This document shows, one piece after another, positions 24,328 through 53,162 of a DNA stretch of 64,000 nucleotides (the stretch's first letter is position 1; every line of letters starts with the position of its first letter). Below the pieces are notes generated by a model. It was given only the letters and a program-made list of their open reading frames with translations, ran no database searches and was not told the origin of the DNA. The stretch comes from Oscillospiraceae bacterium (GTDB lineage: Bacteria; Bacillota; Clostridia; Oscillospirales; CAG-272), in the NCBI GenBank assembly GCA_015063695.1, contig SVTQ01000004.1:3784-67783 (forward strand). Reading direction: 5' to 3'. Position numbers and translations under genes: made by a program.

Positions 24328-24359
24328 AAGATGAACTTGAATTTGCAGGGGGAATAAAT

Positions 24360-24881: not shown

Positions 24882-25017
24882 AACAAATTCCCAATTTATC
24901 GAATTGATATGCCGGAGCGGGACGTGACAATCATGGGACAGTCCCCTGATTGAAGCAGTTTATATATCACTCAAAAATTGTTTTTTATGTATATCCATAT
25001 AAATTAAGGAGTTCATT

Positions 25018-25614
25018 TTGAAAACAAATATAACGTTTCTAAGAGACTGGCTCATAACACTTTTAATAACTACCTTACTGTGGGATTTTGTCGGCGGTAT
25101 TTTTCTACTCATAGCACGATTTATATTCCCGAAACAAGCAGACCATTTTTTGTTTTTTGGCATAATTGGGACTATTGTCTTTTGCTGTGTATTGGCAATA
25201 AGATCGTATAAGTCAGGTTTAGATATTAACGGAAAACGTATTCCTGTGTCGTTGGCCATGCCGATAGCGAGCATGATCATTGCGCTTGGCGTTTATATAG
25301 TTGCTTATATAATATCGGGGTGTAATTATATTGCAGGGCCTGTTGCACATTCATATGTTACCGTGTTTTGGGGCAATGGCGTAGACCAAGCCTTTATTCA
25401 CGATATTACTATGTCTCAACATCTTTCCGTTTTTGTTCCGCTTGGATCATTGTATGTAGCCGTTTCTTTGGGTGCGTACATTTTAGCGAAGTATAAACAG
25501 GATCATCATAACAGTGTCGTTCGCAAATTAAGGGAAGAGGATATGCAAAAGAAATCCGACGATCCCTTTGAAGAAGCGTTAAAAAACGGATTAGGTAACA
25601 GAAAACATAGGTAG
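25018..25614 (+). CDS. hypothetical integral membrane protein
   Basis: 198 aa. About 4 predicted TM helices and a charged C-terminal tail. TTG start with AAGGAG 7 nt upstream. Confidence 0.5.
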   Translation: MKTNITFLRDWLITLLITTLLWDFVGGIFLLIARFIFPKQADHFLFFGIIGTIVFCCVLAIRSYKSGLDINGKRIPVSLAMPIASMIIALGVYIVAYIISGCNYIAGPVAHSYVTVFWGNGVDQAFIHDITMSQHLSVFVPLGSLYVAVSLGAYILAKYKQDHHNSVVRKLREEDMQKKSDDPFEEALKNGLGNRKHR

Positions 25615-25701
25615 TTATACTTGTGATTTAATGAAATAAAACATCTCCACTTGAGTTTAAACTTTTGATATAACCCTTATTATTCTTACATAGAGGTAAA
25701 A

Positions 25702-26574: not shown

Positions 26575-26614
26575 ATGTACGAAAAATTAGTGGTTTACCG
26601 ATAGAGGGCACATT

Positions 26615-27529: not shown

Positions 27530-27530
27530 A

Positions 27531-27604
27531 GGTCGCTTTTTGAAAAAAGCTCCGCAAAAACTTTTAAAGAGAACCCCCGAATGCTCACACATTCGGGGGT
27601 TAAG
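27531..27604 (+). repeat. ~70-bp terminator-like repeat, right copy
   Basis: Same 34-nt core as 22855..22888, then hairpin AACCCCCGAATGctcacacATTCGGGGGTT. The outer stem is conserved; the inner stem differs but still pairs. Confidence 0.8.
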
Positions 27605-27650
27605 TGTTTGTATTGGAGTTTTAGAATAAACAGAACCGGCACGGGGGTTT

Positions 27651-30099: not shown

Positions 30100-31206
30100 T
30101 TACGAGTTTGAAATTTTGGAAACTATCTCTTTTTTATTCTTTTTTGTGAATTCACTTAATGAATATGAACGAACCCTCTCTTTTACAATATTAGGAATTA
30201 AAAATCCATTCGCTGTGAGTTTAACACAACGGTTAATAATTGTTTTGTTGGTGACACCGAATTTTTTACTCACTTCAATTGGAGTGAATTCAAACAAATG
30301 ATTATTAATAAGAAATAACAAAAGTCCTTTTTCTTTTTCGTTCAGATATGACAAACTACCGTCCAATTCATCAGCGGTTGAGTTCCTTGACAGCTCGCAG
30401 ACCTTTTTTGAGTAAAGTTCCATCATACGAAGGAAATAGTTTATCCAGATTTCAGGGTGAGGCGGATTCTCTCTGCCCGAATAATACAATGCCGGCAAGC
30501 CCATTTGAAGCGATGCATAGTATTCGTCGGAATCATATGCGAAATACTCTTCAAGAGAACCGATACCGCCAAAACCGTAACCGTAAAAATCAAGAACGTA
30601 TCCCGACATCAGTCGTGCTGTTCGACCATTGCCATCTTCAAAAGGATGAATAGTAACCAACTGATAGTGAACGACCGCAGCAATAATAAGAGGATGATCA
30701 TCTGTTGTATTTACATATTCTACGAGTTCATCAATAAGTCCGGGAAGCTCGCTGTACTCGGGCGGTATATATTCAGGGGGACCGCTTTCCGAGTCATATA
30801 CGGCAAATAATACCCCCGGAGGCATTGCGCCTCTGAGTCCGATCTTTTCTTTTGAGGCTCCTTTTTCAACCATTGCCTGAACTTCAAGCAGCAGCTTTTT
30901 GGAAAACGGTTCTTTTGCTTTGAGTTTTTCTTCAAGCAAGTTAAGGGCGAGAAAATAATTTCTCACTTCCTGTTCCGGTTTCAGAAAATGTTTATGTGCA
31001 TCGCTTTCCATTGCCTCGTTTGCTTGTTCCTCTGTTAATGGATTTCCTTCAATTTTATTGGAGGCATACGAACTTTTCTTTTTGGAATTTTTTCTGAGCC
31101 TGTTTTTAGTAAGTTGAGGAACTTCAATCGTTTTAAAAGAAAAGCGGTTTTCATCAATAGCAGATATCTTTTTTAATATATCGTTTGTTAACGTAACCTT
31201 TATCAT
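30100..31206 (-). CDS. Fic-family protein (AMPylase-type) with C-terminal wHTH
   Basis: 368 aa. Active-site HPFEDGNGRTARL, N-terminal inhibitory-helix motif SNKIEGN (S-x3-E-G), and a C-terminal HTH-like segment (KFGVTNKTIINRCVKLTANGFL). Confidence 0.9.
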   Translation of the reverse strand: MIKVTLTNDILKKISAIDENRFSFKTIEVPQLTKNRLRKNSKKKSSYASNKIEGNPLTEEQANEAMESDAHKHFLKPEQEVRNYFLALNLLEEKLKAKEPFSKKLLLEVQAMVEKGASKEKIGLRGAMPPGVLFAVYDSESGPPEYIPPEYSELPGLIDELVEYVNTTDDHPLIIAAVVHYQLVTIHPFEDGNGRTARLMSGYVLDFYGYGFGGIGSLEEYFAYDSDEYYASLQMGLPALYYSGRENPPHPEIWINYFLRMMELYSKKVCELSRNSTADELDGSLSYLNEKEKGLLLFLINNHLFEFTPIEVSKKFGVTNKTIINRCVKLTANGFLIPNIVKERVRSYSLSEFTKKNKKEIVSKISNS

Positions 31207-35197: not shown

Positions 35198-37702
35198 TTA
35201 TGCGGCACCTGCGCACCTTATGACCCCCACGGTCGCATCATCAAATCGGCTGTCTGCCAGATGCTCTCTTGCAGTTCTCAGTATTTCCTTTGCCGCCTCT
35301 GGCGGAGCGGAGGAAAGCTTGCCTGACGTGCAGAGAATATCGTAAAGCCACGCGCTGTTTTCCTCATCACCCAGAATTCCGTCGGAAAGCATTATTACGT
35401 AGTCGCCCTCTTCAAGGGTAAACGCCACACTTCCCGCTCTCGCCTCCTTAAGTATGCCGACGGGAGTCGTGGTACATTCCATTCTGAAAAGCTTGTTCCC
35501 TCTAAGAACAAAGGAAGGCGCCGCGCCGCTTTTTATAAACTCCGCCTTACCCGTATAAGGGTCGGCAATAAACAGATCAACCGTTGAAAAACATTCTATC
35601 CTCCTTTCCGAGGTGAAATTATTAAGCAGCTTGAGAGCTGTTTCTACGGGACAGCCTGCCGTCAGCATTCTTTCAAGGAAAATGGTGCTTACTCTTGCGG
35701 TAAGCGCCGCCTCTCTGCCGCTTCCCATGCCGTCACAGATAAGCATACAGTATTTTCCGTCGGGAAGCGCAAAAGAACAGACCGCGTCCCCGTTCACCTC
35801 GGGCCCCCCTGCCCTTTCGCTGAAATGGCCGTACCTGAAGGCAAACTTTTTTCTGCTCTCCATATAGAGATTAAGTCTGTCATAATCAACGGACATTCTC
35901 GGCTCCGTCATAGGCGCGCTCACGCACTCCTCTGCAAGCCGTCGTATATCATCACTGCCGAGGGAAAGATCCTTTACCGTCAGCCCCCTCACCATGACAC
36001 GGGGTCTCTCCCTGCCGTAAACACTTACCTTCTCTCCGACAATACCGTTTTTCTCAAAAACCTCCTTTACCTTCTCTGTAAGATCTTCATTTTTCTCCTC
36101 CTCGGGCTCTTTCCTGCACACAGTTTCCTTTATCAGAGCCGCAAGACTTCCGTAATCCTCGGCAATAACTGCAGTCTTATCCGTTTTGAGTGCCTCGGAA
36201 TAAAATTTCCCATACTCTCGGTTAATACTATCTGCTATAAGGTCGATAGACGGGCATCCCTTTTTCATGGTGTCGGGAAAGGTGTCAATGGTGACCCTTC
36301 CTCTGAGCCTTAAAGACTCGGAAACATCCCTTATAAGCCTTCCGTCGTGAAAACTCTCTCTTGCGTGGCAGAGCTTCTTTTTGGAACAAGTGCCGCAACA
36401 CTCACTGAAAGCGGCACTGCATATATCATCGCAGTCCAAGGATGTCGGAAGTCTGAGCCTTGCGGAAAGTCCGCCGAGAACTTTTGAAATATGGCTGAGA
36501 GCGGAGCTTATTTTTTTTATTTTTTCCGTGTCATCGTATCCGCTTTTTCTGAAGGCTATCTCTTCTCCCACAGGCTCCGCTTCTGCCTTGACAAAGAGCT
36601 CTACCTTTTCGGGAAGAAGTCTGAAATATGCAAGGGGATAAAAAATACCTGCCGCAAGGAGTATTTCGGGCATTGCGGTGGAAAAAGCGGCGATACCGTC
36701 AGCATAAAGTGCCCAGCTTATGCCGAGAGCGGCAGCAGAAACAGAAGCTATTCCAGGGGAAAAACAATAAAGCGCTCCGCAGGCTGCCGCCGCCACCGCA
36801 TACATCGGCGCAAAAGCAGGCTCCATCGCCATTCCCGAAAACAATCCGAAAAGAATACCGTCCGAGATACCAAATCCCACAGAGACCCACATGGAGAGCA
36901 AGAATGCAAGCACTACTCCTACGTTCATTCCGCCGAAAGTAAAGGGGGAGACCGCGAGAAAAAATGCAAAGCCGAAAACCGCCGCACCTGCCTTCCGAAG
37001 TCCTACTGCCTGCTTTCCGTCGCTGACCGAGGAAAAGGCAAAAGTCAGAAGGGGTATGATTACCGCCGTAAAAACAGATGCAAATACATCATACCAGAGA
37101 TTTCCCTCTATAAGTATCATGCCGAGGCCCACGGTAAGGGCTCCCCCAAGTGCGCAGAGCATTTTTACGCTTCCTGCCGTCGAAAAGGCATTTCTTGCCG
37201 CGCGCTTTATGCCCGTCCCCTTTGCAAGCGCAAAATATGTACCCTCGTCCAAAGGACTGTCGCGAACTGAACCCGAGAACCCTTTATAAACGGGAATATG
37301 GTAGGTCTTTACAAGCCCAAAGGTTCCAAGGGCGAGTCTGACAAAATATACGGAAAGCACTGCCGCCCCGTAAAGAAGAAGGCTTTCCTCCATAAAAAAC
37401 AGTCCAAACAGCGCTCCGACAAGTGCCGCCGTTGCAGTTCCAAATCGGTTCATGGCACATATTAGGGCTATGCCGAAAGGGTAAACTCCTGCCATAAGCG
37501 GCACCGAGGACACAAGAAGCGAAAAGGAGAATACCGAGGACGTCACAAGTATTTCTTTTATCTTCCCCATATGTACGTTTTTTACGGTTTCAAGAAGCCT
37601 TGAGGTTTTATCAAAAAAATTCCTCACTCCTTCAAAGCGCTTTTGTCCCGACGGTTTCACCTCTATGCTCTCCGCAAAAGCTTTGTCGATCTTTCTATCC
37701 AT
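35198..37702 (-). CDS. spoIIE: stage II sporulation protein E (PP2C phosphatase)
   Basis: 834 aa. About 10 N-terminal TM helices, a central domain, and a C-terminal PP2C domain (MLICDGMGSG ... VIMLSDGI). Confidence 0.9.
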   Translation of the reverse strand: MDRKIDKAFAESIEVKPSGQKRFEGVRNFFDKTSRLLETVKNVHMGKIKEILVTSSVFSFSLLVSSVPLMAGVYPFGIALICAMNRFGTATAALVGALFGLFFMEESLLLYGAAVLSVYFVRLALGTFGLVKTYHIPVYKGFSGSVRDSPLDEGTYFALAKGTGIKRAARNAFSTAGSVKMLCALGGALTVGLGMILIEGNLWYDVFASVFTAVIIPLLTFAFSSVSDGKQAVGLRKAGAAVFGFAFFLAVSPFTFGGMNVGVVLAFLLSMWVSVGFGISDGILFGLFSGMAMEPAFAPMYAVAAAACGALYCFSPGIASVSAAALGISWALYADGIAAFSTAMPEILLAAGIFYPLAYFRLLPEKVELFVKAEAEPVGEEIAFRKSGYDDTEKIKKISSALSHISKVLGGLSARLRLPTSLDCDDICSAAFSECCGTCSKKKLCHARESFHDGRLIRDVSESLRLRGRVTIDTFPDTMKKGCPSIDLIADSINREYGKFYSEALKTDKTAVIAEDYGSLAALIKETVCRKEPEEEKNEDLTEKVKEVFEKNGIVGEKVSVYGRERPRVMVRGLTVKDLSLGSDDIRRLAEECVSAPMTEPRMSVDYDRLNLYMESRKKFAFRYGHFSERAGGPEVNGDAVCSFALPDGKYCMLICDGMGSGREAALTARVSTIFLERMLTAGCPVETALKLLNNFTSERRIECFSTVDLFIADPYTGKAEFIKSGAAPSFVLRGNKLFRMECTTTPVGILKEARAGSVAFTLEEGDYVIMLSDGILGDEENSAWLYDILCTSGKLSSAPPEAAKEILRTAREHLADSRFDDATVGVIRCAGAA

Positions 37703-41856: not shown

Positions 41857-42147
41857 ATGGTCAACTTTGGAGACAGATTAAAAGCGTTGAGAACAGAGGC
41901 AGGCTTAACGCAAGCTGAACTTGCGGAAAAACTACATCTTACAAAATCCGTTGTGTCCTATTACGAATTGCAAGAAAGAACCCCGTCTCCCGAAATTCTT
42001 GTGCGCATCGCAAAGATATTTCATGTTACCACAAACTATTTGTTGGGTGTAGATAATAAAAAAATGATAGACGTTTCCGATCTGACCGAAGACGATCTGC
42101 ACCTTTTATTACTCACTATTGAAACACTTCGTAAAAAGAATTCTTAA
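41857..42147 (+). CDS. XRE-family HTH transcriptional regulator
   Basis: 96 aa. HTH_3 pattern LKALRTEAGLTQAELAEKLHLTKSVVSYYE. GAAGGAGG RBS present. Confidence 0.85.
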   Translation: MVNFGDRLKALRTEAGLTQAELAEKLHLTKSVVSYYELQERTPSPEILVRIAKIFHVTTNYLLGVDNKKMIDVSDLTEDDLHLLLLTIETLRKKNS

Positions 42148-42297
42148 TTGAGTAAATCCAATATAGCTATAAAACATACAAATCGCCAAAGAACATAATA
42201 CTATAATTGATTTTAGCGGATTTTCCGCTAAATGTCAATGCTGAAAAACCACCTAAACTATAATAATACATAGTTTGATGTAGGTGGTGATTTTATT

Positions 42298-42501
42298 TTG
42301 TACAGGAGAATAAGAGAGCTTCGCGAGGACAGAGATCTAACTCAAAAGCAAATGGGAGAAATATTGTCCTGCAGTCAGAGAGTATACAGTAATTACGAAC
42401 GCGGAGAACTTGATATCCCCACCGAAATTCTTATAAAGCTTGCCGATTTTCATATGGTTTCCGTTGATTATCTCTTGGGAAGAACAGATAAAAAACTTTA
42501 G
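42298..42501 (+). CDS. XRE-family HTH transcriptional regulator (short)
   Basis: 67 aa. IRELREDRDLTQKQMGEILSCSQRVYSNYERG. TTG start with an AGGTGG RBS. Confidence 0.8.
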   Translation: MYRRIRELREDRDLTQKQMGEILSCSQRVYSNYERGELDIPTEILIKLADFHMVSVDYLLGRTDKKL

Positions 42502-42591
42502 TACAATTGAATTTTATCAACTCAAAGCTCTGAAAACAGAGCTTTTTTATTTTACATAGACACAATTGCTATTGATAATTATTCGGTTTTA

Positions 42592-42690
42592 TGGTAAGAT
42601 AGTAAGTAAGATAATAAGCAAGATAATACGCAAGATAGTAAGCAAGATAGTAAGCAAGATAGTAAGCAAGATAATACGCATGATGAGAAA
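42592..42690. repeat. tandem array of a 12-bp unit (consensus AGCAAGATAGTA), 8-9 copies
   Basis: Units read GGTAAGATAGTA AGTAAGATAATA AGCAAGATAATA CGCAAGATAGTA AGCAAGATAGTA (x3) AGCAAGATAATA CGCATGATGAGA. The array ends about 5 nt before the Fic RBS. Confidence 0.9.
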
Positions 42691-42707
42691 ATATGGAGGA
42701 CATAAAA

Positions 42708-43712
42708 ATGCCCGAATATATACCGCCGTATGAAATTACGGATAAAATTTTAAGTCTTGTTGCTTCCATTTCAGAAAAAATCGGAAGAATTACAGAACGA
42801 AGCAGTCTGAGTTCAAAACCTCACTTAAGAAAAAATAACAAGATCAAATCTATTTACTCTTCTCTTGCAATTGAGGCAAATTCTCTTTCCTTTGGAGAAG
42901 TAAAAGACGTTATAAGCGGAAAAACTGTTATTGGAAAAGAAAAAGAGATACAGGAAGTAAAAAATGCTTATGCCGCTTATGAGGAAGTATCAAAGCTTGA
43001 CGTTTACAGCTTGAAAGAGCTGAAGCGTCTGCACGGTATCATGACTAAATATACCGTTAATATCAGCGGTGAGTTCAGGCGCGGAGAAGAGGGAGTCTTC
43101 AACGGAGACAAGTGCATTTTTATGGCTCCGCCCGCAAGATTTGTTCCCTCTCAAATGGAAGACCTTTTCAACTGGATGACAGAAAAAAAGGATACTGTAC
43201 ATCCGCTTATACTTTCCGCCGTTTTCCATTATGAATTTGTTTTTATTCATCCTTTTACCGACGGAAACGGAAGAATGGCCCGTTTGTGGCATACGGCGCT
43301 CCTTGCAAAATGGCAACCGATTTTTGAATATATTCCCATAGAAAGCCAGATTGAAAAATTCCAAAACGGTTATTATGATGCAATCGCAAAATGCCACAAA
43401 GAAAGCAGCAGTACATTTTTTATAGAGTTTATGCTTGAGCAGATATACACAATTCTTAATGAAGTTTCTGCCACCGTTACCTCTCCTTTCGATAATCTTT
43501 CCGAATACGTTACAAGGCTCCTTTCGGTGATGAAGTATGATAAAGCATATTCTGCAAATGAGATCCTCGCCTTGCTTGGACTAAAATCCAAAGAGACGTT
43601 AAGAAAGAATTATCTGACCCCCGCAATCAAAGATGGTCTGATAAGTATGAGCGAACCGGATAAGCCGAGAAGTAAAAACCAACGATATATTAAAACTCAT
43701 AGTGCTGATTAA
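42708..43712 (+). CDS. Fic-family protein
   Basis: Active-site HPFTDGNGRMARLW. N-terminal helix SLAIEAN, where Ala follows the inhibitory Glu instead of G/N. I prefer the ATG at 42708 (MPEYIPPYE), with GGAGGA 7 nt upstream, over 42693. Confidence 0.9.
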   Translation: MPEYIPPYEITDKILSLVASISEKIGRITERSSLSSKPHLRKNNKIKSIYSSLAIEANSLSFGEVKDVISGKTVIGKEKEIQEVKNAYAAYEEVSKLDVYSLKELKRLHGIMTKYTVNISGEFRRGEEGVFNGDKCIFMAPPARFVPSQMEDLFNWMTEKKDTVHPLILSAVFHYEFVFIHPFTDGNGRMARLWHTALLAKWQPIFEYIPIESQIEKFQNGYYDAIAKCHKESSSTFFIEFMLEQIYTILNEVSATVTSPFDNLSEYVTRLLSVMKYDKAYSANEILALLGLKSKETLRKNYLTPAIKDGLISMSEPDKPRSKNQRYIKTHSAD

Positions 43713-43752
43713 CCAAAATTTAACTATAAATCGGACAGAAAGGAGAGCTGAA

Positions 43753-45078
43753 ATGTTACCCGAAAAGGCTGAATTTATTATAAACAGACTGCGTGAAAAC
43801 GGCTTTGAGGCTTACGCAGTGGGCGGCTGTGTGCGAGATATGCTTCGCGGCACCGTTCCCAATGATTTTGATATTACAACTTCTGCTCTTCCTCATGAAA
43901 CAAAAGAGGTCTTTTCTGACCTTCACACCATTGATACGGGTATTTCTCACGGAACGGTAACCGTTATGGTTGACAATGAACCCTTTGAAGTCACAACTTT
44001 TCGATGTGACGGTGAATATCTTGATTCGCGCCACCCCGAGAGCGTAACTTTTACCATGAGCGTTGAAGACGATCTTTCAAGACGTGATTTTACGGTGAAT
44101 TCCATGGCAATGGGAGCTGACGGAAAGATAATCGACCCTTTCGACGGAAAAAGCGACCTTGAAAACAAGATGATCCGTTGTACGGGAGAAGCCGAAAAAC
44201 GTTTTTCCGAGGATGCCCTTCGCATCATGAGAGCCCTTCGCTTCTCTTCCGTTTTAGGATTTGAAATAGAAGAAGCGACTGCGGCGGCAATACACAAAAA
44301 GAAGGAGCTTCTTCTTAATATCTCCGTAGAGAGAATTTTTGAAGAACTTAAAAAGCTTCTTTGCGGAAAAGACGTTTTGAGAATTCTTATGGAATATTCC
44401 GACGTTATCTGCACGGTTATTCCCGATCTTTCGCCTTGCGTTGGATTTGACCAAAAGAATAAACACCACGTATATGATATTTACGAACACTCGGCAAGGG
44501 CAGTTGATGCCATTGAACCCGACAGCACTCTTCGTCTCACAATGCTTCTTCACGATGTGGGAAAACCCTCGGTCGTAAGCGAAGATGACAAAGGATTCAG
44601 ACACTTTTTCGGACATCCCGAAATAAGCGCAAAAATGGCAGAAGATATTCTCGGCAGACTCCATGCCGACAACGCCGCAAAGGACACCGTAAGCCTTCTT
44701 TGCAGATGGCATGACAAAGACATCATCCCCGATGAAAAACACGTAAAAAGGCTGTTTATGCGTCTCTCCTATGAGCAGATCATCATGCTTTGTAAAGTGA
44801 GAATGGCAGATAATGCCGCCCAGAATCCCAAATTTCAAAAACGGGGCGAGGATGCCGTCAAAATAATGAAGCTTGCAGAAAGAATTATATTAGAAAAACA
44901 GTGCGTTACTCTTCGTGATCTGGCAGTCAACGGTAACGACATGAAAAAGTGCGGATACAACGGTACTGAGATCGGAAGGATTCTGAATCTTCTTCTTGAA
45001 AAAGTTATCGACGGAGAAATTGAAAACAAAAAAGAAATACTTCTTCTATTTGCAGAAAGAATTAACAATAATATCTGA
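43753..45078 (+). CDS. cca: CCA tRNA nucleotidyltransferase / poly(A) polymerase-family enzyme with HD domain
   Basis: VGGCVRD and DFDITT nucleotidyltransferase motifs plus HDVGK. ATG at 43753 with AAAGGAGAG upstream; the track start at 43702 overlaps the Fic gene end. Confidence 0.85.
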   Translation: MLPEKAEFIINRLRENGFEAYAVGGCVRDMLRGTVPNDFDITTSALPHETKEVFSDLHTIDTGISHGTVTVMVDNEPFEVTTFRCDGEYLDSRHPESVTFTMSVEDDLSRRDFTVNSMAMGADGKIIDPFDGKSDLENKMIRCTGEAEKRFSEDALRIMRALRFSSVLGFEIEEATAAAIHKKKELLLNISVERIFEELKKLLCGKDVLRILMEYSDVICTVIPDLSPCVGFDQKNKHHVYDIYEHSARAVDAIEPDSTLRLTMLLHDVGKPSVVSEDDKGFRHFFGHPEISAKMAEDILGRLHADNAAKDTVSLLCRWHDKDIIPDEKHVKRLFMRLSYEQIIMLCKVRMADNAAQNPKFQKRGEDAVKIMKLAERIILEKQCVTLRDLAVNGNDMKKCGYNGTEIGRILNLLLEKVIDGEIENKKEILLLFAERINNNI

Positions 45079-45174
45079 AATAATAATCCCTGCTTTGTAA
45101 AGGAACTTATCTTCCGCGCAAAACAGGGATTTATTCTTGTTATTATATGAATTTATAAGATGTCTATATACTGT

Positions 45175-45203
45175 AAAAGGGAGTCTCCGAAGAGACTCCC
45201 TTT
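45175..45203. terminator. hairpin terminator downstream of the giant surface-protein gene
   Basis: AAAA-GGGAGTCTCcgaaGAGACTCCC-TTT, a perfect 9-bp stem. Confidence 0.7.
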
Positions 45204-45228
45204 AGAGTTTTATTTAGCTTTTAAAATA

Positions 45229-48200
45229 TCAACCAAGTTCGTCTGCTGTGATATCCTTGTTGATGAGCTGCATGAGGAGAGCCTGGTCTCTGTTGTTTAC
45301 TCTGCCGTCACCGTTAAGGTCAGCATTTTCAATTATTACCTCATCTTCTGTAATATCCTTGTTGATGAGCTGCATGAAGAGAGCCTGGTCTCTGTTGTTT
45401 ACTCTGCCGTCATCGTTAAGGTCACCGAGGAGAAGGTCGGGTTCGTCGATAATTTCTTTTTCAAGAATTACGCCGCAAACTGTACATCTTGTTACAAGAT
45501 AACCGTCTTCTTCTGCGGGTTCGCCTGCTGTATGACCTGTTTCGGGAACGATAACTGCCTTGAGGTTAGTATTGAGGTTGCCTTCAGCATCAAGCCATGC
45601 ATATCCGCAAGCTTCGCAGTACCAGTACTCAATGTTACCGGCATCTGTACATGTAGGAGCTACTGCTTCAACGTGTGTAAGCTCTGCGTGTGCTGCGGGA
45701 AGAATTACTGCCTTGAGGTTTGTATTGAGCGTGCAATCTGCGTCGAGCCATGCATATCCGCATACGTCGCAGTACCAGTGCTCAATGTTACCGTTTTCGA
45801 AGCATGTAGGAGCTACTTCTTCAACGTGAATGATGTTGTGCTTGCATTCATCATCGATCTTTTCTTCGGCAATAACTACACCTGCATTTTCAAATTCAAC
45901 TGCAAGGTCGTTAAGGTCTGCATCAAACGTATCGTAAGGAAGATCGCAAATCAGAGCGATTTCATAGATACCTTCTGCTGCGCCTGCAAACGTAATTGTT
46001 ACTGCAGTACCGTCGCCGTAGTAGTTTTCGAGTTCATTAGCTTCATAGTATACAACCAATGCTCTCTTGCCTTCTGTAGATATACCGTTTTCCTCGAAAA
46101 CAGCAGAAATAACGGGAGAAGTTGCAGGATCCATGTTGTAGTCATCACCGAGTGTCATTTCGCCTTTTTCTGTAAAGATAACGTTACCGGATTCTACAGA
46201 AAGAATTTCGAGTGCATCATCAAATACAACGATGAATCTGGAGCCCCAGATACCGGGGTTGTTCTTGATGGAGATGTCTACGGTAAATTCTTCACCGGGA
46301 GCTGCTGTTACGTCGGAAGCAACGTACTGAAGTGCATCAGCTGCAGGAAGAGCGATCTCGAGAATTGTTTCGCCACATGCTGTACATGTGAGAACCTTAG
46401 CGTCGTCTGTGTATTCCCATTCGCCTGCTACGTGACCTGTTGCAGGAATGATCTCTTCGGAGATTGTTTCACCGCAAACTACACAGCTTACTGTGCTGGA
46501 ACCGTCTTCTGTACATGTGGGAGCAACTTCAACGGGTTCGCCTGCGATGTGTGCACATGCGGGCTTTTCTGTTACGTTGAGAGCACCTGCTGCGAATTCG
46601 TAAGCGATTTCTTCTTTAGCATTGTTGAAGCAGTCTTCAGCGAGAGCTGCAACACCGATCTCGTATGCGCCGATTTCAGCTGCTGCGAATTCGAGAGTTA
46701 CGAGTGTACCGTTACCGATAATATCAGCGAGTTCGTCTGCTTCAATGTAGATGCATACGAATTCCTTGCCTGCTGCGTCAACACCGCATTCAGCGAATGC
46801 TGCTTCTGCTGCTGCGAAGGAAGCGGGAGCCTGTTCGAATTCACCGATTGTGATTTCGGAGTCAGCTGCGATCTCACCGTTGTTTACGCCAACGAGTGTA
46901 AGAGCTGCATCGTAGTAAACGAAGATACGTGTTGCCCAGAAGCCGTCGTTACCTGTGAGGTATACGGGAACTGTAGCTGCGTTGCCTGTTACTACGCTTA
47001 CGTTGTCAACTGTGATTGTAGGAACGTTAGCGATTTCCTTTTCGTTCAGCTTTTCACCGCAAACTGCGCAGTACTGAACCATCATATCGCCTTCGATTAC
47101 CCATTCGCCTGCCTTATGGCCGGGAGCTGCGATAACCTTTGTTTCAACTTCGCCGCATGTGCCGCAAGTCTTTGTTTCGGAACCTGTTTCTGTACATGTG
47201 GGAGCTACTGTTACAACATCACCCCAAGCGTGGCCGGGAGCCTTTGTTGTCTTTGTTTCTGTCTTGCCGCAGAGACCGCAATTTCTTTCTTCGATCTTAT
47301 CTGTTGTGCAGTCGCCTTCCTGAGTTGTTTTCCAATCGGACCATTCGTGTTCGCAAACTACTTCGCGAGCTACGATCTCACCGGAAACCTTTTCAAGAGA
47401 AACGTTTTCATAATCTGCATTGTATACGTTTTCAGCGGAGTAAGCTACGCCGATTTCGTATGCTACGTCAGCACCTGCAGGTACTGCGAATGTTGCGCCG
47501 AAGAGGATGCCGTCAGCTGTTACGTCATCGAGGTCAGCACTTTCAAGATAGATAGCTGTTACCTTCTTACCTGCTGCATCAACACCGCATTCATCGAATG
47601 CAACTACGCAGTCTGCAAGGTAATCGGGAGCCATGTTGAATACGGATTCATCGTATGTGATCTCAGCGAATACGTCGCCTGCTTCGATAGCTGTGAGCTC
47701 GAGAGCTTCATCATAGTATACGTATACGAGCATACCGTAGATGCCGGGGTTGTATTCTACAGAAACGTTAACAGTTGCTTCTGCTTCTGTTTCAGCTTCG
47801 ATGGAGTCAACGATGATCTTGGAGATTTCTGTTGCGGGAATTGTTTCGGAAGCAACTACTTCGCCGCAAACTGTACAGCTCTTTGTTCTGAGACCTTCAG
47901 TTGTAGGACCGGGAGCTACTACTTCTACCCATTCACCGGATGTATGACCCTTAGCGGGAACGTCGATTGTTTCTGTGCTGCCGCATGCGGAACATGTTGC
48001 TGTTGCAATACCTGTTTCTGTACATGTGGGAGCCTTTGTTTCTACGTAATCACTCCAAGAGTGACCGAGAGCTGCGATAGGCTGTGTCTTTGTTGCGCCG
48101 CAGTTTGCACATGTTGCTGTTGCAACACCTGCTTCTGTACATGTGGGAGCCTTTGTTTCTACGTATTCTCCGTAGTCGTGACCGATAGGTGCAATAGAGG

Positions 48201-50883
48201 ATGTCTTTGTTGCACCGCAGTTAGCGCACGTTGCTGTTGCAACACCTGCAACTGTACATGTGGGAGCCTTTGTTTCAACTGCTTCACCGTATGCGTGGCC
48301 GAGAGCAGCAACGGGTGCTGTGTTCATGAGCTTGCCGCAGTTTACGCAAGACTGAGTCTTTTCGCCTGCAGCTGTACATGTGGGAGCCTTTGTTTCTACC
48401 CATTCACCTGCAACGTGGTCGCAAGGATCAAGTGCGGGAATAATGATAGCACCGTCGTTTGTGTAGTATTCGAGAGCAACGCCTTCGTTGTTTACTGTGT
48501 AACCGTCGAGAGCGATGATACCGATTTCGAATTCGTATGTATCATTGTTGGGAAGATCGAATACGAGAGTTGCGAGCTCGCCGTCGCCCTTAACGTTTTC
48601 AAGGGAGAGGCTTTCTGTGTAGAACTTATAGCAAAGAACGCCGTCAGTGGAAACGCCTGCTACAGCAAATGCTGCTGCCGCTGCTGCGTCTGTTGCGGGA
48701 TCTACGTTGTAGTAAGAATCGATGATCTTTTCGAAGAGTTCGCCTTCGATTACGCCGTTGAGGTCGAGAGCTGCGTCATAGTATACGTAGAAGCCCATGG
48801 ACCAGATACCGTCGTTACCAACGAAAGTAACGGGAACCTTAACGCCTGCCGCACCCTGAGCTGCTTCAACTGTTGCGATCGTTACTGTAGGATCGGGAAT
48901 AAGGGGTATAATTTCTGTGTCGATCGTTTCGCCGCATACTGCACACTTGAGTTCCTTAAGACCTGTTTCCTGTCTTGTAGCTTCCTTAGTTACTACCCAT
49001 TCGCCTTCCTTATGGCCGAGAGCGGGGATAACTGTGTGGCTGAGTTCTTCGCCGCATACTGTACATGTTACGGATGTGTAACCGTCAACTGTACATGTAG
49101 CTGCTACTGTTGTTGTTGTGGACTTGTGTCCTGTTTTGGGAAGAGTTTCAACGATCTTTTCGCCGCATACTGTACATGTGTAAGACTTGGAACCGTCTTC
49201 TGTACATGTGGGCTGAATAGTTGTAACTGCGCCCTGCTTGTGACCGAGAGCAGGAACAACAGATGTCTTTGTTTCGCCGCATACTGTACATGTGAAGAGC
49301 TTTTCACCGGGTGTTGTACATGTAGCTGCTGTAATTGTCTTGCCTGCATCCCAAGAATGGCCGAGAGCTGCGATATCTTCAACTTCTACCTTGCCGCAGT
49401 TGGGACATGTTCTTTCTCTTGAACCCTTTTCGGTACATGTGGGAGCCTTTGTTTCTGCCCAATCACCGAACTTGTGGCCTTCACCGTTTTCAGCGAATAC
49501 GTAACCGTAACCTGCTGTGAGAACATTGGAAGTTGCTGCTACTGCATTGGATGCAGAGTAACGGGAACCAACGTTATCAACGAAGAGTGTATATGTCTTA
49601 CATTCGTAGCTGTAAGATGTGTTTACGTTGGAGGAGTTAGCTGTTGTGATATAGATATCACCGCCGCACTGGTTAGCGCCGCAAGCGTTGCCGGAGAATG
49701 CGCCGCCTGTGATAACGAGTGCCTTAGCGTTTGTGGAAGTTACAGCGATAGCACCGCCGAACTGACCTGCTGTGTTATTTGTAATGAAACCGCCGGAAAC
49801 TGTGAGAGTACCGTTGCCGTCAACAAAGATACCGCCTGCACTGTACATCTGAGATGCGTTGCCGGAGATAGTACCGCCGGAAACTGTCATTGTACCGAGA
49901 TTGTATACAGCACCGCCGCAAGACTTAGCTGTGTTACCGGAAATTTCGCCGCCTGTGATGTTGAGAACACCTGTATTGTAGATCGCGCCACCGAAGAAGA
50001 TGGTGGGATCGCTCTTGTCTGTGTATGTAGCTGTATTGCCGGAGATAAGACCGCCGGAAATGTTAAGAGTACCCTGGTTGTAGAAACCGCCGCCGTTTCT
50101 TCTGGAGTTGTTATTGATAACGGAACCGTTTTCCATATTGAAGGTACCTGCAGCTGCGATGTGAACACCGCCTGCGCCGCCGCCCTGTTCGTTGGCAACG
50201 TTGTAGGAGATCTCGCCGCCGTACATATTGAATGTACCGCTTACTACGCCGATTGCACCGTTACGACCGTCGTTCTGACCGCCTTCGCCGCCGATAACGC
50301 CGCCGTACATATTAACAGTACCGCCTGCAACTGTGATAGCTGCGCCGAACTGAGTTGTAGCGGAACTGGAGTTGTGCATATGGATATTGGTAATAGAACC
50401 ACCGTTGATGTTAAGTGTACCTACAACTGTGATACCGCCGCCGCTTACAGCTGCGTTACCTCTGTTTGTTGTAAGAAGCGCACCGTCATTGAAGTTAAGA
50501 ATACCGCCGTCCTGGACAACGATCATTTCTGTTGCCAGCTGAGCTGTTTCATAACTTGTGCGGTTACCGTTCACTGTGATGTTTTCCAGTGTAAGTTCGC
50601 CGCCGTCTGCAACTACAAACATATAGGATTTGTAGCTTGCTGCTCTGAGGATGGAACTACCGTTTGTTGATGTGATAGTTGCCTTACCGCTTACGGTAAT
50701 GGATGCTGTAAGCTCGATGTTGGCTGTTACGTCGATAACGTCAGCACCGCTTGCCAGCGCGCTCTGCAACTGTGCAAGAGTTGCTGCTTCAGCTGCTACC
50801 GCAGATGCCGTGAAAGGCACGGAAGCGAGAAGCATGCAAACTACAAGCAGAATAGCAAAGCTTTTCTTGAAAGTGTTTCTCAT
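45229..50883 (-). CDS. secreted scaffoldin-like protein: signal peptide, beta-helix head, 18 His/Cys3 mini-modules, 4 cohesin-like modules, C-terminal dockerin
   Basis: 1884 aa. Signal peptide MRNTFKKSFAILLVVCMLLASVPFTASA. GGAIY/GGAVY/GGGFYN beta-helix repeats over aa ~30-465. Cohesin-like modules at aa 664-817, 1019-1173, 1287-1438 and 1516-1673. Duplicated dockerin DLNDDGRVNNRD / DLNGDGRVNNRD in the last 69 aa. Confidence 0.85.
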   Translation of the reverse strand: MRNTFKKSFAILLVVCMLLASVPFTASAVAAEAATLAQLQSALASGADVIDVTANIELTASITVSGKATITSTNGSSILRAASYKSYMFVVADGGELTLENITVNGNRTSYETAQLATEMIVVQDGGILNFNDGALLTTNRGNAAVSGGGITVVGTLNINGGSITNIHMHNSSSATTQFGAAITVAGGTVNMYGGVIGGEGGQNDGRNGAIGVVSGTFNMYGGEISYNVANEQGGGAGGVHIAAAGTFNMENGSVINNNSRRNGGGFYNQGTLNISGGLISGNTATYTDKSDPTIFFGGAIYNTGVLNITGGEISGNTAKSCGGAVYNLGTMTVSGGTISGNASQMYSAGGIFVDGNGTLTVSGGFITNNTAGQFGGAIAVTSTNAKALVITGGAFSGNACGANQCGGDIYITTANSSNVNTSYSYECKTYTLFVDNVGSRYSASNAVAATSNVLTAGYGYVFAENGEGHKFGDWAETKAPTCTEKGSRERTCPNCGKVEVEDIAALGHSWDAGKTITAATCTTPGEKLFTCTVCGETKTSVVPALGHKQGAVTTIQPTCTEDGSKSYTCTVCGEKIVETLPKTGHKSTTTTVAATCTVDGYTSVTCTVCGEELSHTVIPALGHKEGEWVVTKEATRQETGLKELKCAVCGETIDTEIIPLIPDPTVTIATVEAAQGAAGVKVPVTFVGNDGIWSMGFYVYYDAALDLNGVIEGELFEKIIDSYYNVDPATDAAAAAAFAVAGVSTDGVLCYKFYTESLSLENVKGDGELATLVFDLPNNDTYEFEIGIIALDGYTVNNEGVALEYYTNDGAIIIPALDPCDHVAGEWVETKAPTCTAAGEKTQSCVNCGKLMNTAPVAALGHAYGEAVETKAPTCTVAGVATATCANCGATKTSSIAPIGHDYGEYVETKAPTCTEAGVATATCANCGATKTQPIAALGHSWSDYVETKAPTCTETGIATATCSACGSTETIDVPAKGHTSGEWVEVVAPGPTTEGLRTKSCTVCGEVVASETIPATEISKIIVDSIEAETEAEATVNVSVEYNPGIYGMLVYVYYDEALELTAIEAGDVFAEITYDESVFNMAPDYLADCVVAFDECGVDAAGKKVTAIYLESADLDDVTADGILFGATFAVPAGADVAYEIGVAYSAENVYNADYENVSLEKVSGEIVAREVVCEHEWSDWKTTQEGDCTTDKIEERNCGLCGKTETKTTKAPGHAWGDVVTVAPTCTETGSETKTCGTCGEVETKVIAAPGHKAGEWVIEGDMMVQYCAVCGEKLNEKEIANVPTITVDNVSVVTGNAATVPVYLTGNDGFWATRIFVYYDAALTLVGVNNGEIAADSEITIGEFEQAPASFAAAEAAFAECGVDAAGKEFVCIYIEADELADIIGNGTLVTLEFAAAEIGAYEIGVAALAEDCFNNAKEEIAYEFAAGALNVTEKPACAHIAGEPVEVAPTCTEDGSSTVSCVVCGETISEEIIPATGHVAGEWEYTDDAKVLTCTACGETILEIALPAADALQYVASDVTAAPGEEFTVDISIKNNPGIWGSRFIVVFDDALEILSVESGNVIFTEKGEMTLGDDYNMDPATSPVISAVFEENGISTEGKRALVVYYEANELENYYGDGTAVTITFAGAAEGIYEIALICDLPYDTFDADLNDLAVEFENAGVVIAEEKIDDECKHNIIHVEEVAPTCFENGNIEHWYCDVCGYAWLDADCTLNTNLKAVILPAAHAELTHVEAVAPTCTDAGNIEYWYCEACGYAWLDAEGNLNTNLKAVIVPETGHTAGEPAEEDGYLVTRCTVCGVILEKEIIDEPDLLLGDLNDDGRVNNRDQALFMQLINKDITEDEVIIENADLNGDGRVNNRDQALLMQLINKDITADELG

Positions 50884-51003
50884 GTGCTTTCTCCTTTAAA
50901 AAAGAATAAAATTGAACCAATTGCAACACGGAAATTTCTCTTTGGAAATTGCGCCTTTCGGACAAATTCTTTAGTGACAATTTTCCATGGTAATCTTATC
51001 GTA

Positions 51004-51032
51004 ATTATATAGTAATTGACTACCAATGTCAA
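51004..51032 (-). promoter_or_regulatory. consensus sigma-A promoter of the giant gene
   Basis: The minus strand reads TTGACA, a 17-nt spacer, then TATAAT, about 120 nt upstream of the 50883 start. Confidence 0.55.
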
Positions 51033-51393
51033 GGGTTTACACAAAAAACACAATATAAAACGGGATTTTTTGTGTAATTGCACAAAAAAGACGTTTACTT
51101 TTTTAGCATTAAGTTTAACAGAAAATCGATTATTTAATAAACAGGCAGAAAAACAGCGACAAAACACCGCAAAAACCGATCTTTAATTTAAAAATACTTT
51201 ACACTTCGAGAAAAATATGATATAATTTCAAAGTATGAAGATTGTTATGTTTTTCTGACAAAAACAGTTTCTTCAGCAAAAGGGCACTTGCGTAACGCGG
51301 CATTTTTGTTTTATATTCACGCTCCCTGAAAGGGGGCATTATGCATTCAGTTGCAGCCGCTCACGCTTTGCACATATATAATAAGGAAGAAAA

Positions 51394-52260
51394 ATGATGA
51401 AAAACAAGAAGAAAAAAGACGTCAGAAGAGTAAAAACTCTCCCCCCGATGTCTGTTATCGTTCCTTTCATTATGAAGGACAGGGTAGGCAGTTCCAACCT
51501 TATGTACGACAAGATAAACACCGTGAAACTTGAAAGATACATAAAGGAAAAGCAGGTGTCGGAAGATATGAAAAACCTCTCGATGATGCACGTGCTTATC
51601 GCCGCCTACTGCAGACTTATTTCCCAGCGTCCCGCAATCAACAGATTTATAAGAGGACAGAGAGTTTATACAAGACGCAGTATTGAAGTTGCCCTTACAA
51701 TAAAAAAAGAAATGACCCTCGAATCCCCCGACACCGTTGTAAAAGTTACTCTCCAGCCCGATGCAACAATATATGACGTTTACGAAGCTCTGAACAAAGA
51801 GATAGTGAATTACAGAGACAATCCCGGCGGAGACTTTGACAACACCGCAAAGTTTCTCAGCTATATTCCCGCACTCGTACTTCGCGGAGTGATATCTCTT
51901 CTCACTTTCCTTGACTATTTCAATCTTCTGCCCAAATTCCTTCAAAAGGTCAGCCCCTTCCACTGCTCCATGTTCATAACCTCAATGGGCTCCCTCGGCA
52001 TTCCCGCGATCTACCATCATCTCTACGATTTCGGCACATGCCCTGCATTTATTGCTTTCGGAGCAAAGAGAAGACGTTACGAAGTAAATCCCGACGGCTC
52101 CGTATACAAGCATCAGTTCATGGACGTGAAATTTACTCTGGACGAGAGAATTTGTGACGGCTACTATTACGCAAAGGCTCTGAAGCTCTGGAAATCCTTC
52201 CTTAATGACCCGTGGTGTCTGGATGTTCCGCCCGAAAAGGTCGTTGAAGATATTGATTGA
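51394..52260 (+). CDS. CAT-fold / 2-oxoacid dehydrogenase E2 catalytic-domain-like acyltransferase family protein
   Basis: 288 aa. Overall pattern of stand-alone E2-catalytic-domain proteins. The usual DHRxxDG motif reads DERICDG here. Confidence 0.5.
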   Translation: MMKNKKKKDVRRVKTLPPMSVIVPFIMKDRVGSSNLMYDKINTVKLERYIKEKQVSEDMKNLSMMHVLIAAYCRLISQRPAINRFIRGQRVYTRRSIEVALTIKKEMTLESPDTVVKVTLQPDATIYDVYEALNKEIVNYRDNPGGDFDNTAKFLSYIPALVLRGVISLLTFLDYFNLLPKFLQKVSPFHCSMFITSMGSLGIPAIYHHLYDFGTCPAFIAFGAKRRRYEVNPDGSVYKHQFMDVKFTLDERICDGYYYAKALKLWKSFLNDPWCLDVPPEKVVEDID

Positions 52261-52319
52261 AAGATAAAAGGCTCCCTCCGGGGAGCTTTTTCAAATTGAA
52301 GCATCACAAATATCCGCTG

Positions 52320-52348
52320 TTGACTTTTTGGAGAATAAAAGGTATAAT
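52320..52348 (+). promoter_or_regulatory. consensus sigma-A promoter inside the annotated 5' end of ORF 52257..53162
   Basis: TTGACT, a 17-nt spacer, then TATAAT. This implies the real CDS starts downstream at 52380. Confidence 0.55.
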
Positions 52349-52379
52349 GTTTTTGATTATGTGTTCAAAGGAAGAAACG

Positions 52380-53162
52380 ATGGAAGCTGTCCGAAAAAGC
52401 GGAAATACCGCCATCAAAAGAAAAAAATCAGACCGTACCGCAAGTCCTGCTGTTTCCGTTGTAGCGAAAAATGACGGTGAATTCTTTCTTTTTCTCTGTC
52501 CTTTAAACAAAAACAGTATTCAAAAAGTCTGCTTCAAAACTCCCGACAGATGTATCGGAAGAACAACAGAGGTCTCTCCCGTTTTTCTGAACATGCTTAC
52601 TGAAGCGCAGAGAGGTATTTTCAGAAAAAACACTGTTCTCGGAACTGTATTTCTGACGGACGGCGACTCGGACGGATGTCTTATTCCCCTTGAAAAAGCA
52701 TCCGATCTTCCTCTGCTTCGGGACAAAGAGCTTTACTTCGGAGTTGACAGAAGAAGCCTTGCGGCAAGGCTTACGGGAACAAGAATTCACTTTGAAAAAG
52801 CGCTGTTTATAGACGTCTCAGAAAGCAGAATGGAAGCCTTTTTCTGCATTGGAGAACAGGTTGTCTCAGTCTTTCCGATTGATGTTTCAAAAGAGAGCTT
52901 TTCTTCTGCGGAAATAGTATTATCACTGATTTCAGAGCCTTCGGAAATCCTGAATTTTTCAGAGAATTTTGCTCCCGACATTCTCTTTATTTCTATTCCG
53001 ACTCCGACGGAAAAGGATATAAAACAAATTTCGTCCGTCTTTAACAAAAACGAAGAATGGAAAAACACAACCTTATTTTTCCGGCCGTCTGACGATGAAG
53101 AGCTTGCTCTGTTTGCGGCGAAAATTTTAGCGGACAAACAGCAAAAAGCCATGATAAAATGA
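52380..53162 (+). CDS. hypothetical protein
   Basis: 260 aa from the ATG at 52380 (MEAVRKSGNT), with AAGGAAG upstream and downstream of the promoter above. I recognise no family. Confidence 0.45.
   Translation: MEAVRKSGNTAIKRKKSDRTASPAVSVVAKNDGEFFLFLCPLNKNSIQKVCFKTPDRCIGRTTEVSPVFLNMLTEAQRGIFRKNTVLGTVFLTDGDSDGCLIPLEKASDLPLLRDKELYFGVDRRSLAARLTGTRIHFEKALFIDVSESRMEAFFCIGEQVVSVFPIDVSKESFSSAEIVLSLISEPSEILNFSENFAPDILFISIPTPTEKDIKQISSVFNKNEEWKNTTLFFRPSDDEELALFAAKILADKQQKAMIK

Follow-up and report, generated by a model that had tools for sequence, protein, structure and literature searches.

Cohesin–dockerin scaffolds serve as the model of self-assembling extracellular protein machines and have found wide use in synthetic biology; control of their geometry is hindered by floppy linkers. 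The scaffoldins of cellulosomes, such as ScaA, ScaB, ScaC and ScaH of Ruminococcus flavefaciens, CipA of Clostridium thermocellum, and ScaA and ScaB of Acetivibrio cellulolyticus, are secreted, non-anchored chains that carry several cohesins and end in a dockerin. CipA has cohesin repeats that are near-identical to each other, and A. cellulolyticus ScaA begins with a large module other than a cohesin, a GH9. Ruminococcus bromii, a non-cellulolytic member of the gut Oscillospirales, makes an amylosome (e.g. Amy4 and the Sca proteins) in which cohesin and dockerin also occur in single chains; these proteins carry GH13 and CBM26 starch modules and usually a single cohesin. Here, a giant gene is described that occupies positions 45229..50883 on the minus strand of a 64,000-nucleotide stretch of DNA (the window), taken from contig SVTQ01000004.1 (positions 3,784 to 67,783) of the Oscillospiraceae bacterium assembly GCA_015063695.1. 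Its product of 1884 amino acids (aa) shares the cellulosomal plan of cohesins plus dockerin, and adds a beta-helix head and arrays of Cys/His repeats.

Two other groups of described proteins share parts of this plan. According to a preprint (10.64898/2026.02.05.704116), R. difficilis scaffoldins carry leucine-rich repeat (LRR), Ig-like and mucin-binding domains, and R. callidus has polyvalent adaptors with cohesins and a dockerin. These gut Oscillospirales scaffoldins likewise join cohesins with putative adhesion modules, a likeness drawn from how the preprint describes them. The same text, searched for "helix", "zinc" and "cysteine", makes no mention of a beta-helix head or of Cys/His zinc repeats. 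The second group is represented by the IgA protease of Thomasclavelia ramosa, whose domains CTD2 and CTD4 (ZBD1 and ZBD2) are possibly a new metal-binding fold made of three-stranded sub-domains, with Cys/His zinc sites predicted at the sub-domain interfaces and a rigid "periscope" stalk proposed as the result (PMC12415215, PMC12237041).

The giant protein departs from cellulosome scaffoldins in several respects. Its beta-helix head has no carbohydrate-active enzyme (CAZyme) signature, and it has neither a carbohydrate-binding module (CBM) nor an X module. Its linkers are folded His/Cys arrays, while those of cellulosome scaffoldins are flexible and Pro/Thr-rich. Its cohesins are only 29–39% identical and partly position-specific, in contrast to the repeats of CipA. 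In addition, its gene stands alone among housekeeping genes and not in a sca cluster. The R. bromii amylosome resembles it in having both module types in one chain (a comparison by description, not sequence), but to our knowledge amylosome proteins have no beta-helix head and no Cys/His arrays.

No description was found in the open-access literature of a beta-helix-headed scaffoldin, of folded Cys/His arrays that replace flexible linkers, or of the scaffoldin family to which the giant protein belongs. An earlier note on this DNA had known of no described cellulosome or amylosome system with such an arrangement. Non-cohesin heads and adhesion domains do have precedents, in A. cellulolyticus ScaA and in R. 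difficilis. Since such heads and adhesion domains have been seen on scaffoldins before, the giant protein is a variant scaffoldin and not a new kind.

Cohesin and dockerin modules

The Cohesin model PF00963 matches the whole protein with 47 bits in four stretches (gathering score 24.1). Module 1 lies at 48427..48900 (aa 662–819; 33.4 bits), module 2 at 47359..47832 (aa 1018–1175; 21.7 bits, E=2.5e-4), module 3 at 46564..47025 (aa 1287–1440; 17.9 bits, E=3.8e-3) and module 4 at 45859..46341 (aa 1515–1675; 25.8 bits), all on the minus strand, as are the other protein segments given below. Modules 1 and 4 pass the gathering score alone. Module 2 is 32–39% identical to modules 1 and 3, and module 3 is 38–39% identical to modules 1 and 2; across all four, mutual identity is 29–39%, and on this measure the modules are clearly homologous to one another.

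More sensitive comparisons point to the same fold. A family profile, made from 30 "repeat–cohesin–repeat" units of the scaffoldin family, matches solved cohesins, among them C. thermocellum OlpA (3ul4, E=2.4e-8) and also 4ums, 2xdh, 4dh2, 5lxv and 4iu2. The AlphaFold2 (AF2) model of residues 623–860, which comprise cohesin 1 and its flanks, has a pLDDT (the model's own confidence measure) of 94.4. The best 50 Foldseek matches of the cohesin 1 model in the PDB are all cohesins, with type I cohesins first (CipA 1aoh: TM 0.78, root-mean-square deviation 2.8 Å), and the predicted structure of module 1 is the nine-stranded beta-sandwich (jelly-roll) of the cohesin fold. The nearest type I cohesins are 1aoh, 3ul4, 1g1k and 5nrm.

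The C-terminus (45232..45441; aa 1815–1884) is a type I dockerin. Dockerin_1 (PF00404, gathering score 22.9) scores 38 bits within the whole protein and 45.7 bits with the C-terminus alone. The last 70 aa contain two calcium loops, DLNDDGRVNNRD and DLNGDGRVNNRD, that follow the motif D.N.DG.VN..D, and the module aligns with the CelS dockerin 2mte/1daq at 1.1e-6, as well as with other type I dockerin structures. Its two halves are identical in 22 of 24 residues and, at the DNA level, in 94% of 84 nucleotides (nt; 45239..45322 versus 45341..45424). In 14 other scorable family members, including an ortholog that is 84% identical overall, the halves agree in just 7–15 of 22–24 residues. The near-perfect symmetry suggests a recent internal conversion or duplication.

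The modules were thus recognized correctly in the earlier note, which had placed four cohesin-like modules at aa 664–817, 1019–1173, 1287–1438 and 1516–1673 and a duplicated calcium-binding dockerin at the C-terminus. The check with PF00963 and PF00404 that it had called for gives significant matches for both on the whole protein, with modules 2 and 3 below threshold when taken singly.

Cys/His arrays

Every gap between the head, the cohesins and the dockerin is occupied by an array of Cys/His repeats. The repeat is approximately 39 aa long, with the consensus GH-x4-W-x5-(A/P)TC-x10-C-x2-CG, and its 18 copies make up 38% of the protein. The earlier note had overlooked these repeats, which are arguably the protein's most unusual feature. 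Arrays A (48901..49479; aa 469–661) and B (47833..48426; aa 820–1017) have five repeats each, array C (47026..47358; aa 1176–1286) has three, array D (46342..46563; aa 1441–1514) has two, and array E (45442..45858; aa 1676–1814) has three.

Pfam returned only sub-threshold zinc-ribbon noise for the repeats, and no Pfam entry for them was found. They do match the sequence of the T. ramosa IgA protease (PDB 9qa6) at residues 855–1001 and 1103–1130, with E=1.2e-9 for a single sequence and 1.5e-11 for a profile. The pattern GH..GEW..T.ATCT..G.....C..CG of ZBD1/ZBD2 (CTD2/CTD4) is the same as that of the giant protein. By these matches, the Cys/His repeats are homologous to the ZBD/CTD2-4 stalk domains of the IgA protease. 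This homology includes array A. Two of the three repeats in array E are of a longer, 51-aa subtype, which is the repeat type most like that of the IgA protease (best match at 9qa6 residues 855–934).

The two proteins differ in how the repeat is used. The giant protein has 18 copies in five arrays as inter-cohesin linkers, whereas the stalk of the IgA protease has five sub-domains. Ligand sets are mostly C3H in the former and C2H2 in the latter, with fold and metal predicted only in both. In the AF2 model of residues 623–860, each Cys/His repeat is a confident three-stranded sheet.

Putative ligands were tallied over 235 repeats in 17 proteins of the family. His(-23), Cys(-10) and CxxC are present in every one of the 95 internal repeats. 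Cys(-10) is missing from the array-terminal repeats (67 of 70), and an extra Cys in a CxH motif is present in the first repeat after a cohesin (49 of 53). The simplest reading is a C3H site in which His(-23) and the CxxC of repeat i would be joined by Cys(-10) from the repeat before it, i-1; where a cohesin precedes, the CxH cysteine would stand in for Cys(-10). With this ligand pattern, the repeats are probably zinc-binding. The first repeat after the head (aa 469–507, nt 49363..49479) has the internal pattern but neither a preceding repeat nor a CxH cysteine in 17/17 members; no fourth ligand is evident from the ligand-sharing rule, and an invariant head cysteine or a non-Cys ligand may complete the site. 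The rule itself is a directly testable structural prediction for the His/Cys repeat.

The beta-helix head

The head (49480..50799; aa 29–468) is confidently predicted to be a right-handed parallel beta-helix; the earlier note had proposed a parallel beta-helix from its recurring GG motifs. The AF2 model of residues 28–470, aligned with 13 homologs, is an all-beta solenoid with periodic strands (pLDDT 90.1, pTM 0.91). Every Foldseek match in the PDB is a right-handed beta-helix: the best are the Gram-positive adhesins PfbA and SRRP, and lower ranks hold tailspikes, lyases and autotransporter passengers. All of these matches are weak (best E 3.5e-3, TM approximately 0.4), and none assigns a specific family. 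In a comparison with viral models, an SLH-domain protein and a generic beta-helix protein rank highest.

Beta-helix adhesins, which include Streptococcus pneumoniae PfbA (4mr0, 3zpp), Limosilactobacillus reuteri SRRP (5nxk), chlamydial polymorphic membrane proteins (PMP) and autotransporter passengers, share with the head the right-handed fold and coils of the GGA[IV] type. Six GG[AG][IVLF] motifs are present in the head (GGGI148, GGGF264, GGAI298, GGAV323, GGAI376 and GGAF393), plus seven N..GG motifs. There are only four FxxN motifs, at positions 366–463, i.e. in the last 105 of the 470-residue region, and they do not recur along its length. Unlike these adhesins, to which the match is weak (E 3.5e-3, TM 0.40), the giant protein has no autotransporter barrel and no LPXTG signal, and its attachment would be by the dockerin.

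The earlier note had gone further and assigned the head to the PMP type, which no profile model supports. Pfam and NCBIfam gave no match to the head at E<=1, including to Chlam_PMP (PF02415), Beta_helix (PF13229), POMP and CAZyme models. Membership in PMP, POMP or Beta_helix was therefore rejected for want of support from hidden Markov models, and the likeness to PMP is one of fold and GGA[IV] motifs. Distant relatives carry PF02415 and PF13229.

Constraint is strongest in the head, which has the lowest ratio of nonsynonymous to synonymous substitution rates (dN/dS) of any segment, 0.09. Its invariant polar residues R80, R108, N140/R141, H168/H170/N171 and D205 are spaced by approximately 28–35 residues, or about one coil, and this ladder of R, H, N and D probably lines up on one face like a substrate groove. 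A head profile matched 63,628 proteins in a library of 1.84 billion representatives; these are mostly giant proteins, and it is the central coils that match them, in up to 29 stretches each. End-to-end matches were confined to the scaffoldin family. In a metagenome scan, the same profile found one family member and 79 distant beta-helix loci, few of which have cohesins or dockerins.

Gene and expression signals

The giant protein is encoded by a single uninterrupted open reading frame (ORF). A sigma-70-type promoter, TTGACA-17 nt-TATAAT, lies at 51032..51004(-) and agrees with the consensus at 12/12 positions. Eight promoter-like sites were found across the region compared to a mean of 8.5 in shuffled sequence; as there is no regional excess, only the 12/12 match and its position carry weight. 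The ribosome-binding site AGGAG (50891..50895) is 7 nt 5′ of the ATG. A 12-bp GC-rich hairpin at 45176..45203, which begins approximately 25 nt 3′ of the stop codon, is likely a bidirectional terminator, common to the giant gene and the convergent gene for a CCA-adding enzyme.

The Sec signal peptide (50800..50883; aa 1–28, MRNTFKKSFAILLVVCMLLASVPFTASA followed by V) was called by reading the sequence. It has an n-region with R2, K6 and K7 (MRNTFKK), a hydrophobic core, FAILLVVCMLLA, and then SVPFTASA with V as the next residue, so that the cut would fall after residue 28. It is kept in all full-length homologs. Promoter, signal peptide and terminator all agree with what had first been read from this ORF. 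No SLH domain, C-terminal sorting signal or transmembrane segment beyond the signal peptide is present in the 1884-aa protein. Lipoprotein anchoring was rejected because there is no lipobox. Sortase anchoring was rejected as well: LPKTG (residue 581) and IPATG (residue 1479) fall within Cys repeats, a long way from the C-terminus, and do not qualify as sorting signals.

An antisense ORF of 1420 aa at 45160..49422(+) covers most of the giant gene. Its translation is of low complexity and rich in Cys, Phe and Val. As a gene it was rejected, since it is almost certainly a shadow of sense-strand codon composition, by which gene callers could be misled.

Family and recombination

A full-length search found 16 relatives, for a family of at least 17 members. 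The relatives come from rumen and gut metagenome-assembled genomes (MAGs) labelled Clostridia, Eubacteriales, Acutalibacteraceae or Ruminococcaceae. All 16 have the same plan of signal peptide, head, Cys arrays, two to five cohesins, and dockerin. This family of scaffoldins with a beta-helix head is previously uncharacterised.

The closest relative, the 84% identical ortholog P0001 (locus L010), has the same order of 14 segments, and its locus shares the upstream neighbours, namely a 2-oxoacid_dh-like gene, RuvX and a Wzy_C gene. The same 1884-aa protein, identical throughout, is found on an independent 45-kb Joint Genome Institute (JGI) metagenome contig. The nine families of direct repeats within the gene are 60–82% identical, except for one 84-nt pair at 94%. 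Compared to the ortholog, dN/dS is 0.09–0.33 in every segment, by which measure the gene is under purifying selection along its whole length. Together, the independent identical copy, the ortholog with the same order and neighbours, the divergent repeats and the dN/dS values mean that the giant gene is real and not an assembly artefact. It is intact in independent assemblies, so that the splitting by assembly errors that the earlier note had envisaged did not occur. In one related MAG, a family gene appears to be broken over two contigs (L001 and L002) that overlap inside cohesin 1 and differ in sequence there. A first reading as two paralogs was dropped; one fragmented gene, strain variants or paralogs are all possible.

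Cohesins from different members cluster by position to a varying degree. Cohesin 1 is 46–52% identical to cohesin 1 of five other species (P0002–P0006), compared to 30–36% to its own siblings. For cohesins 2 and 3, the best foreign matches are 41% and 44%, compared to 37% within the protein, which is a weaker positional pattern. Cohesin 4 groups with its close ortholog only. By this clustering, the modules are of old origin and, at least in part, not equivalent to one another.

The 3′ end of the gene has a different history. From the head to cohesin 3, identity to the ortholog is 89–96%, but it falls to 73% in cohesin 4, 25% in the last Cys array and 56% in the dockerin. The synonymous rate (dS) is 0.12–0.37 for the rest of the gene and 0.87–1.9 in the 3′ cassette at 45229..46341, of which cohesin 4 (dS 0.87) is the start, while dN/dS is unchanged. 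This pattern indicates that the whole cassette, from cohesin 4 through the last Cys array to the dockerin, was swapped by recombination between family members. Because dS is raised in the cassette with dN/dS unchanged, a recombination tract, rather than altered selection, would explain the divergence. Selection on a co-evolving cohesin 4–dockerin pair was rejected as the primary reading of the fast 3′ divergence, since dS is 3–10 times higher there too. The longer 51-aa repeat subtype of array E lies within the exchanged cassette.

Proposed assembly and alternative explanations

The giant protein combines a secreted chain (by its sequence-read signal peptide), four cohesins, a dockerin and no anchor of its own, which at the domain level is the architecture of an adaptor scaffoldin, as had been proposed from the first reading. 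The overall picture, which we regard as probable on balance, is of a secreted, polyvalent adaptor-type scaffoldin of a cohesin–dockerin system in an uncultured gut or rumen bacterium of the Eubacteriales (Clostridia). Each of the four cohesins would capture a partner protein that bears a dockerin. The cohesins probably differ in specificity, given that they are 29–39% mutually identical and yet module 1, and to a lesser extent modules 2 and 3, are closer to their foreign counterparts; the complex would then have a defined composition. The dockerin would plug the assembly into a cohesin on another protein, either an anchoring scaffoldin or another copy of the giant protein, and its near-perfect two-fold symmetry suggests a dual binding mode. 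Zinc would clasp neighbouring Cys/His repeats into stiff rods, which would take the place of the flexible Pro/Thr linkers found in classical scaffoldins and fix the spacing between docking sites. The beta-helix head, highly conserved and at the distal end, would be a tip that binds a substrate, a glycan or the host.

Hints to the nature of the cargo come from the loci of relatives. At L002, a 571-aa BspA-type LRR protein with a C-terminal dockerin is encoded at 6635..8350(+), approximately 3.4 kb downstream of the family gene, and is a candidate cargo. Also downstream of both the family gene and the gene for the CCA-adding enzyme, L002 encodes at 5483..6607(+) a 374-aa protein with an N-terminal transmembrane helix, approximately six Cys/His repeats and no Pfam match, which might represent a relative of the spacer module that is anchored in the membrane. 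At L011, the locus found in the metagenome scan, a calcineurin-like phosphoesterase (Metallophos) with a dockerin is encoded directly upstream of the family gene. As these neighbouring dockerin proteins are not CAZymes, the system may serve adhesion or surface display rather than cellulose degradation.

Several observations weigh against the adaptor scaffoldin. Modules 2 and 3 individually fall just under the PF00963 gathering score (21.7 and 17.9 compared to 24.1), and of the structure predictions that had been suggested for all modules, the one carried out covered module 1 alone of the four cohesins; that one bears out the cohesin fold (pLDDT 94.4). The 64-kb window encodes no other dockerin, cohesin or Cys repeat, whether as a partner or as an anchoring gene, and the cargo hints are drawn from the loci of relatives, not from the source genome. 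The ZBDs of the IgA protease, on which the rods are modelled, are known from predicted models alone, as the cryo-electron microscopy map resolved only residues 32–876 (PMC12237041). In a collection of 5.8 billion proteins, a search with the dockerin alone gave 10 candidates and one weak 91-aa match, and is uninformative; a cohesin-only profile gave three matches and missed the scaffoldin family itself, which reflects a word-index limit and not absence. Finally, the beta-helix fold is also found in polysaccharide lyases, hydrolases and phage depolymerases, and the head, which the earlier note had taken as non-enzymatic, could therefore be catalytic.

A more specific version of the adaptor scaffoldin is offered tentatively, and we consider it doubtful. 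It would be a rigid, non-cellulosomal display organelle of gut Clostridia, in which zinc-clasped C3H rulers hold four position-specific sockets at fixed distances below a beta-helix adhesin tip. A defined set of non-CAZyme partners, such as LRR adhesins and phosphoesterases, would be presented in a fixed geometry, and environmental zinc could control the stiffness or integrity of the organelle. Its metal-clasped rigid linkers and ordered, heterogeneous sockets would be the opposite of the flexible, promiscuous cellulosome.

Among the alternatives, the one that survives best, though unlikely, is that the head is a carbohydrate-active enzyme (a lyase, hydrolase or depolymerase) from a family not yet described, on the pattern of A. 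cellulolyticus ScaA, which joins GH9 to cohesins and a dockerin. PL1, PL6, PL9, GH28 and phage depolymerases, which are among the Foldseek matches, all fold as right-handed beta-helices, and both the strong constraint (dN/dS 0.09) and the invariant, coil-periodic ladder of R, H, N and D would suit an enzyme. However, no Pfam or NCBIfam enzyme family matches the head, and its best structural matches are the adhesins PfbA and SRRP, and all PDB matches are weak (E>=3.5e-3, TM approximately 0.4). The G/N/T-rich GGA[IV] coils are also typical of adhesin-type solenoids, and recur many times in giant surface proteins.

Slightly less credible is a stalked adhesin, in which the modules of cohesin fold no longer bind dockerins and are, with the Cys/His repeats, mere "periscope" spacers that keep the beta-helix head at a distance from the cell, leaving the dockerin as the sole functional interaction module. 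The low cohesin scores (18–33 bits per module) and the lack of partner dockerin genes nearby fit this idea, as do cohesin-like modules outside cellulosomes, of which Archaeoglobus fulgidus 2xdh and Clostridium perfringens GH84C 2w1n are among the matches. The homologous Cys/His domains have themselves been proposed as periscope spacers (PMC12415215). Interchangeable spacers are argued against by the positional conservation of module 1, which is 46–52% across species compared to approximately 30% within the protein. Moreover, cohesins and dockerin are both kept in 17/17 family members, dockerin-only proteins adjoin the family genes in two relatives, and a dockerin implies functional cohesins somewhere in the organism.

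It is improbable, more so than either of these, that the protein self-assembles into a fibre or lattice through binding of its dockerin to a cohesin of its own type on another copy, giving head-to-tail polymers with free cohesins and heads. Such an assembly would account for cohesin and dockerin in one chain with no anchor, and fibre-like assemblies of adaptor scaffoldins have been suggested for ruminococci (preprint 10.64898/2026.02.05.704116). If cohesin 4 had to match the dockerin, their joint exchange together with the last Cys array would be the expected outcome; however, one recombination tract equally explains the co-transfer of adjacent modules without a functional link. Members of the family with two cohesins also keep the same layout. 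An assembly or annotation artefact, in which repeat-rich sequence was put together into a chimeric ORF, is effectively refuted: the gene is highly repetitive, with its nine direct-repeat families, and is split in a related MAG (L001, L002), but the identical protein on the JGI contig, the ortholog's 14 segments beside the same upstream neighbours, the modest identity of the repeats (just 60–82% in DNA) and purifying selection throughout all speak against it.

The family suggests a natural rigid-linker version of cohesin–dockerin machines, with folded, probably zinc-clasped spacers, non-equivalent and at least partly position-specific sockets, and a binding head at the tip. If this is borne out, cohesin–dockerin biology would extend beyond fibre degradation to adhesion and surface display in uncultured gut and rumen Clostridia. 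The His/Cys repeat, widespread yet unannotated and without a Pfam model, would be placed in a functional context; it also occurs in the IgA protease of T. ramosa. Finally, designer scaffolds of defined spacing would gain ready-made rigid spacer parts.

Genomic surroundings

The giant gene stands alone amid housekeeping genes, which include those for a CCA-adding enzyme, RuvX, RecA, a Wzy_C protein and SpoIIE. In the window, the CCA-enzyme gene and the giant gene converge; at the ortholog's locus the two are also adjacent, but co-directional. This difference in orientation means that the region has been rearranged. On the other side, a divergent pair of genes at 51394..52260(+) and 52257..53162(+) is preceded by an 11/12 promoter with a TG extension at 51198..51226. 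The first encodes 288 aa, whose sole match is to the C-terminal part of the 2-oxoacid dehydrogenase acyltransferase catalytic domain, and the second is a 301-aa ORF with no Pfam match. Likewise, upstream of the ortholog at L010, a 2-oxoacid_dh-like gene is followed by a gene without a Pfam match.

A more distant lineage has related modules in another arrangement. At L017, 6263..20356(+) is a cluster of three genes that encode a 2009-aa beta-helix/Flg_new/Chlam_PMP protein, a 1444-aa Big_2/Flg_new_2 protein with a dockerin and a weak cohesin-like match, and a 477-aa protein with two weak cohesin matches and five Cys/His repeats. By these domain matches, the cluster suggests that the combination of cohesin and Cys repeat occurs outside the family of beta-helix scaffoldins.

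The window also contains low-GC islands at 42001..44000 (0.37) and 24001..28000 (0.35–0.38), compared to approximately 0.45–0.50 elsewhere. The first of these adjoins the giant gene and holds a Fic/DOC-family gene at 42693..43712, with two helix-turn-helix (HTH) genes and a YAcAr gene nearby; a second Fic gene lies at 30100..31206. A putative surface protein of 745 aa is encoded at 11360..13597(-), with Bact_surface_Ig-like, InlK_D3, Big_13 and Rib domains and a C-terminal Peptidase_C39_2 domain, and without cohesin or dockerin. Other genes, none of them linked to the scaffoldin, encode a GH31 glycosidase without a dockerin at 27651..29888(-), a GGGtGRT-family protein at 21828..22844(+) and SpoIIE at 35198..37702(-). 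The SpoIIE gene implies a spore-forming Firmicute.

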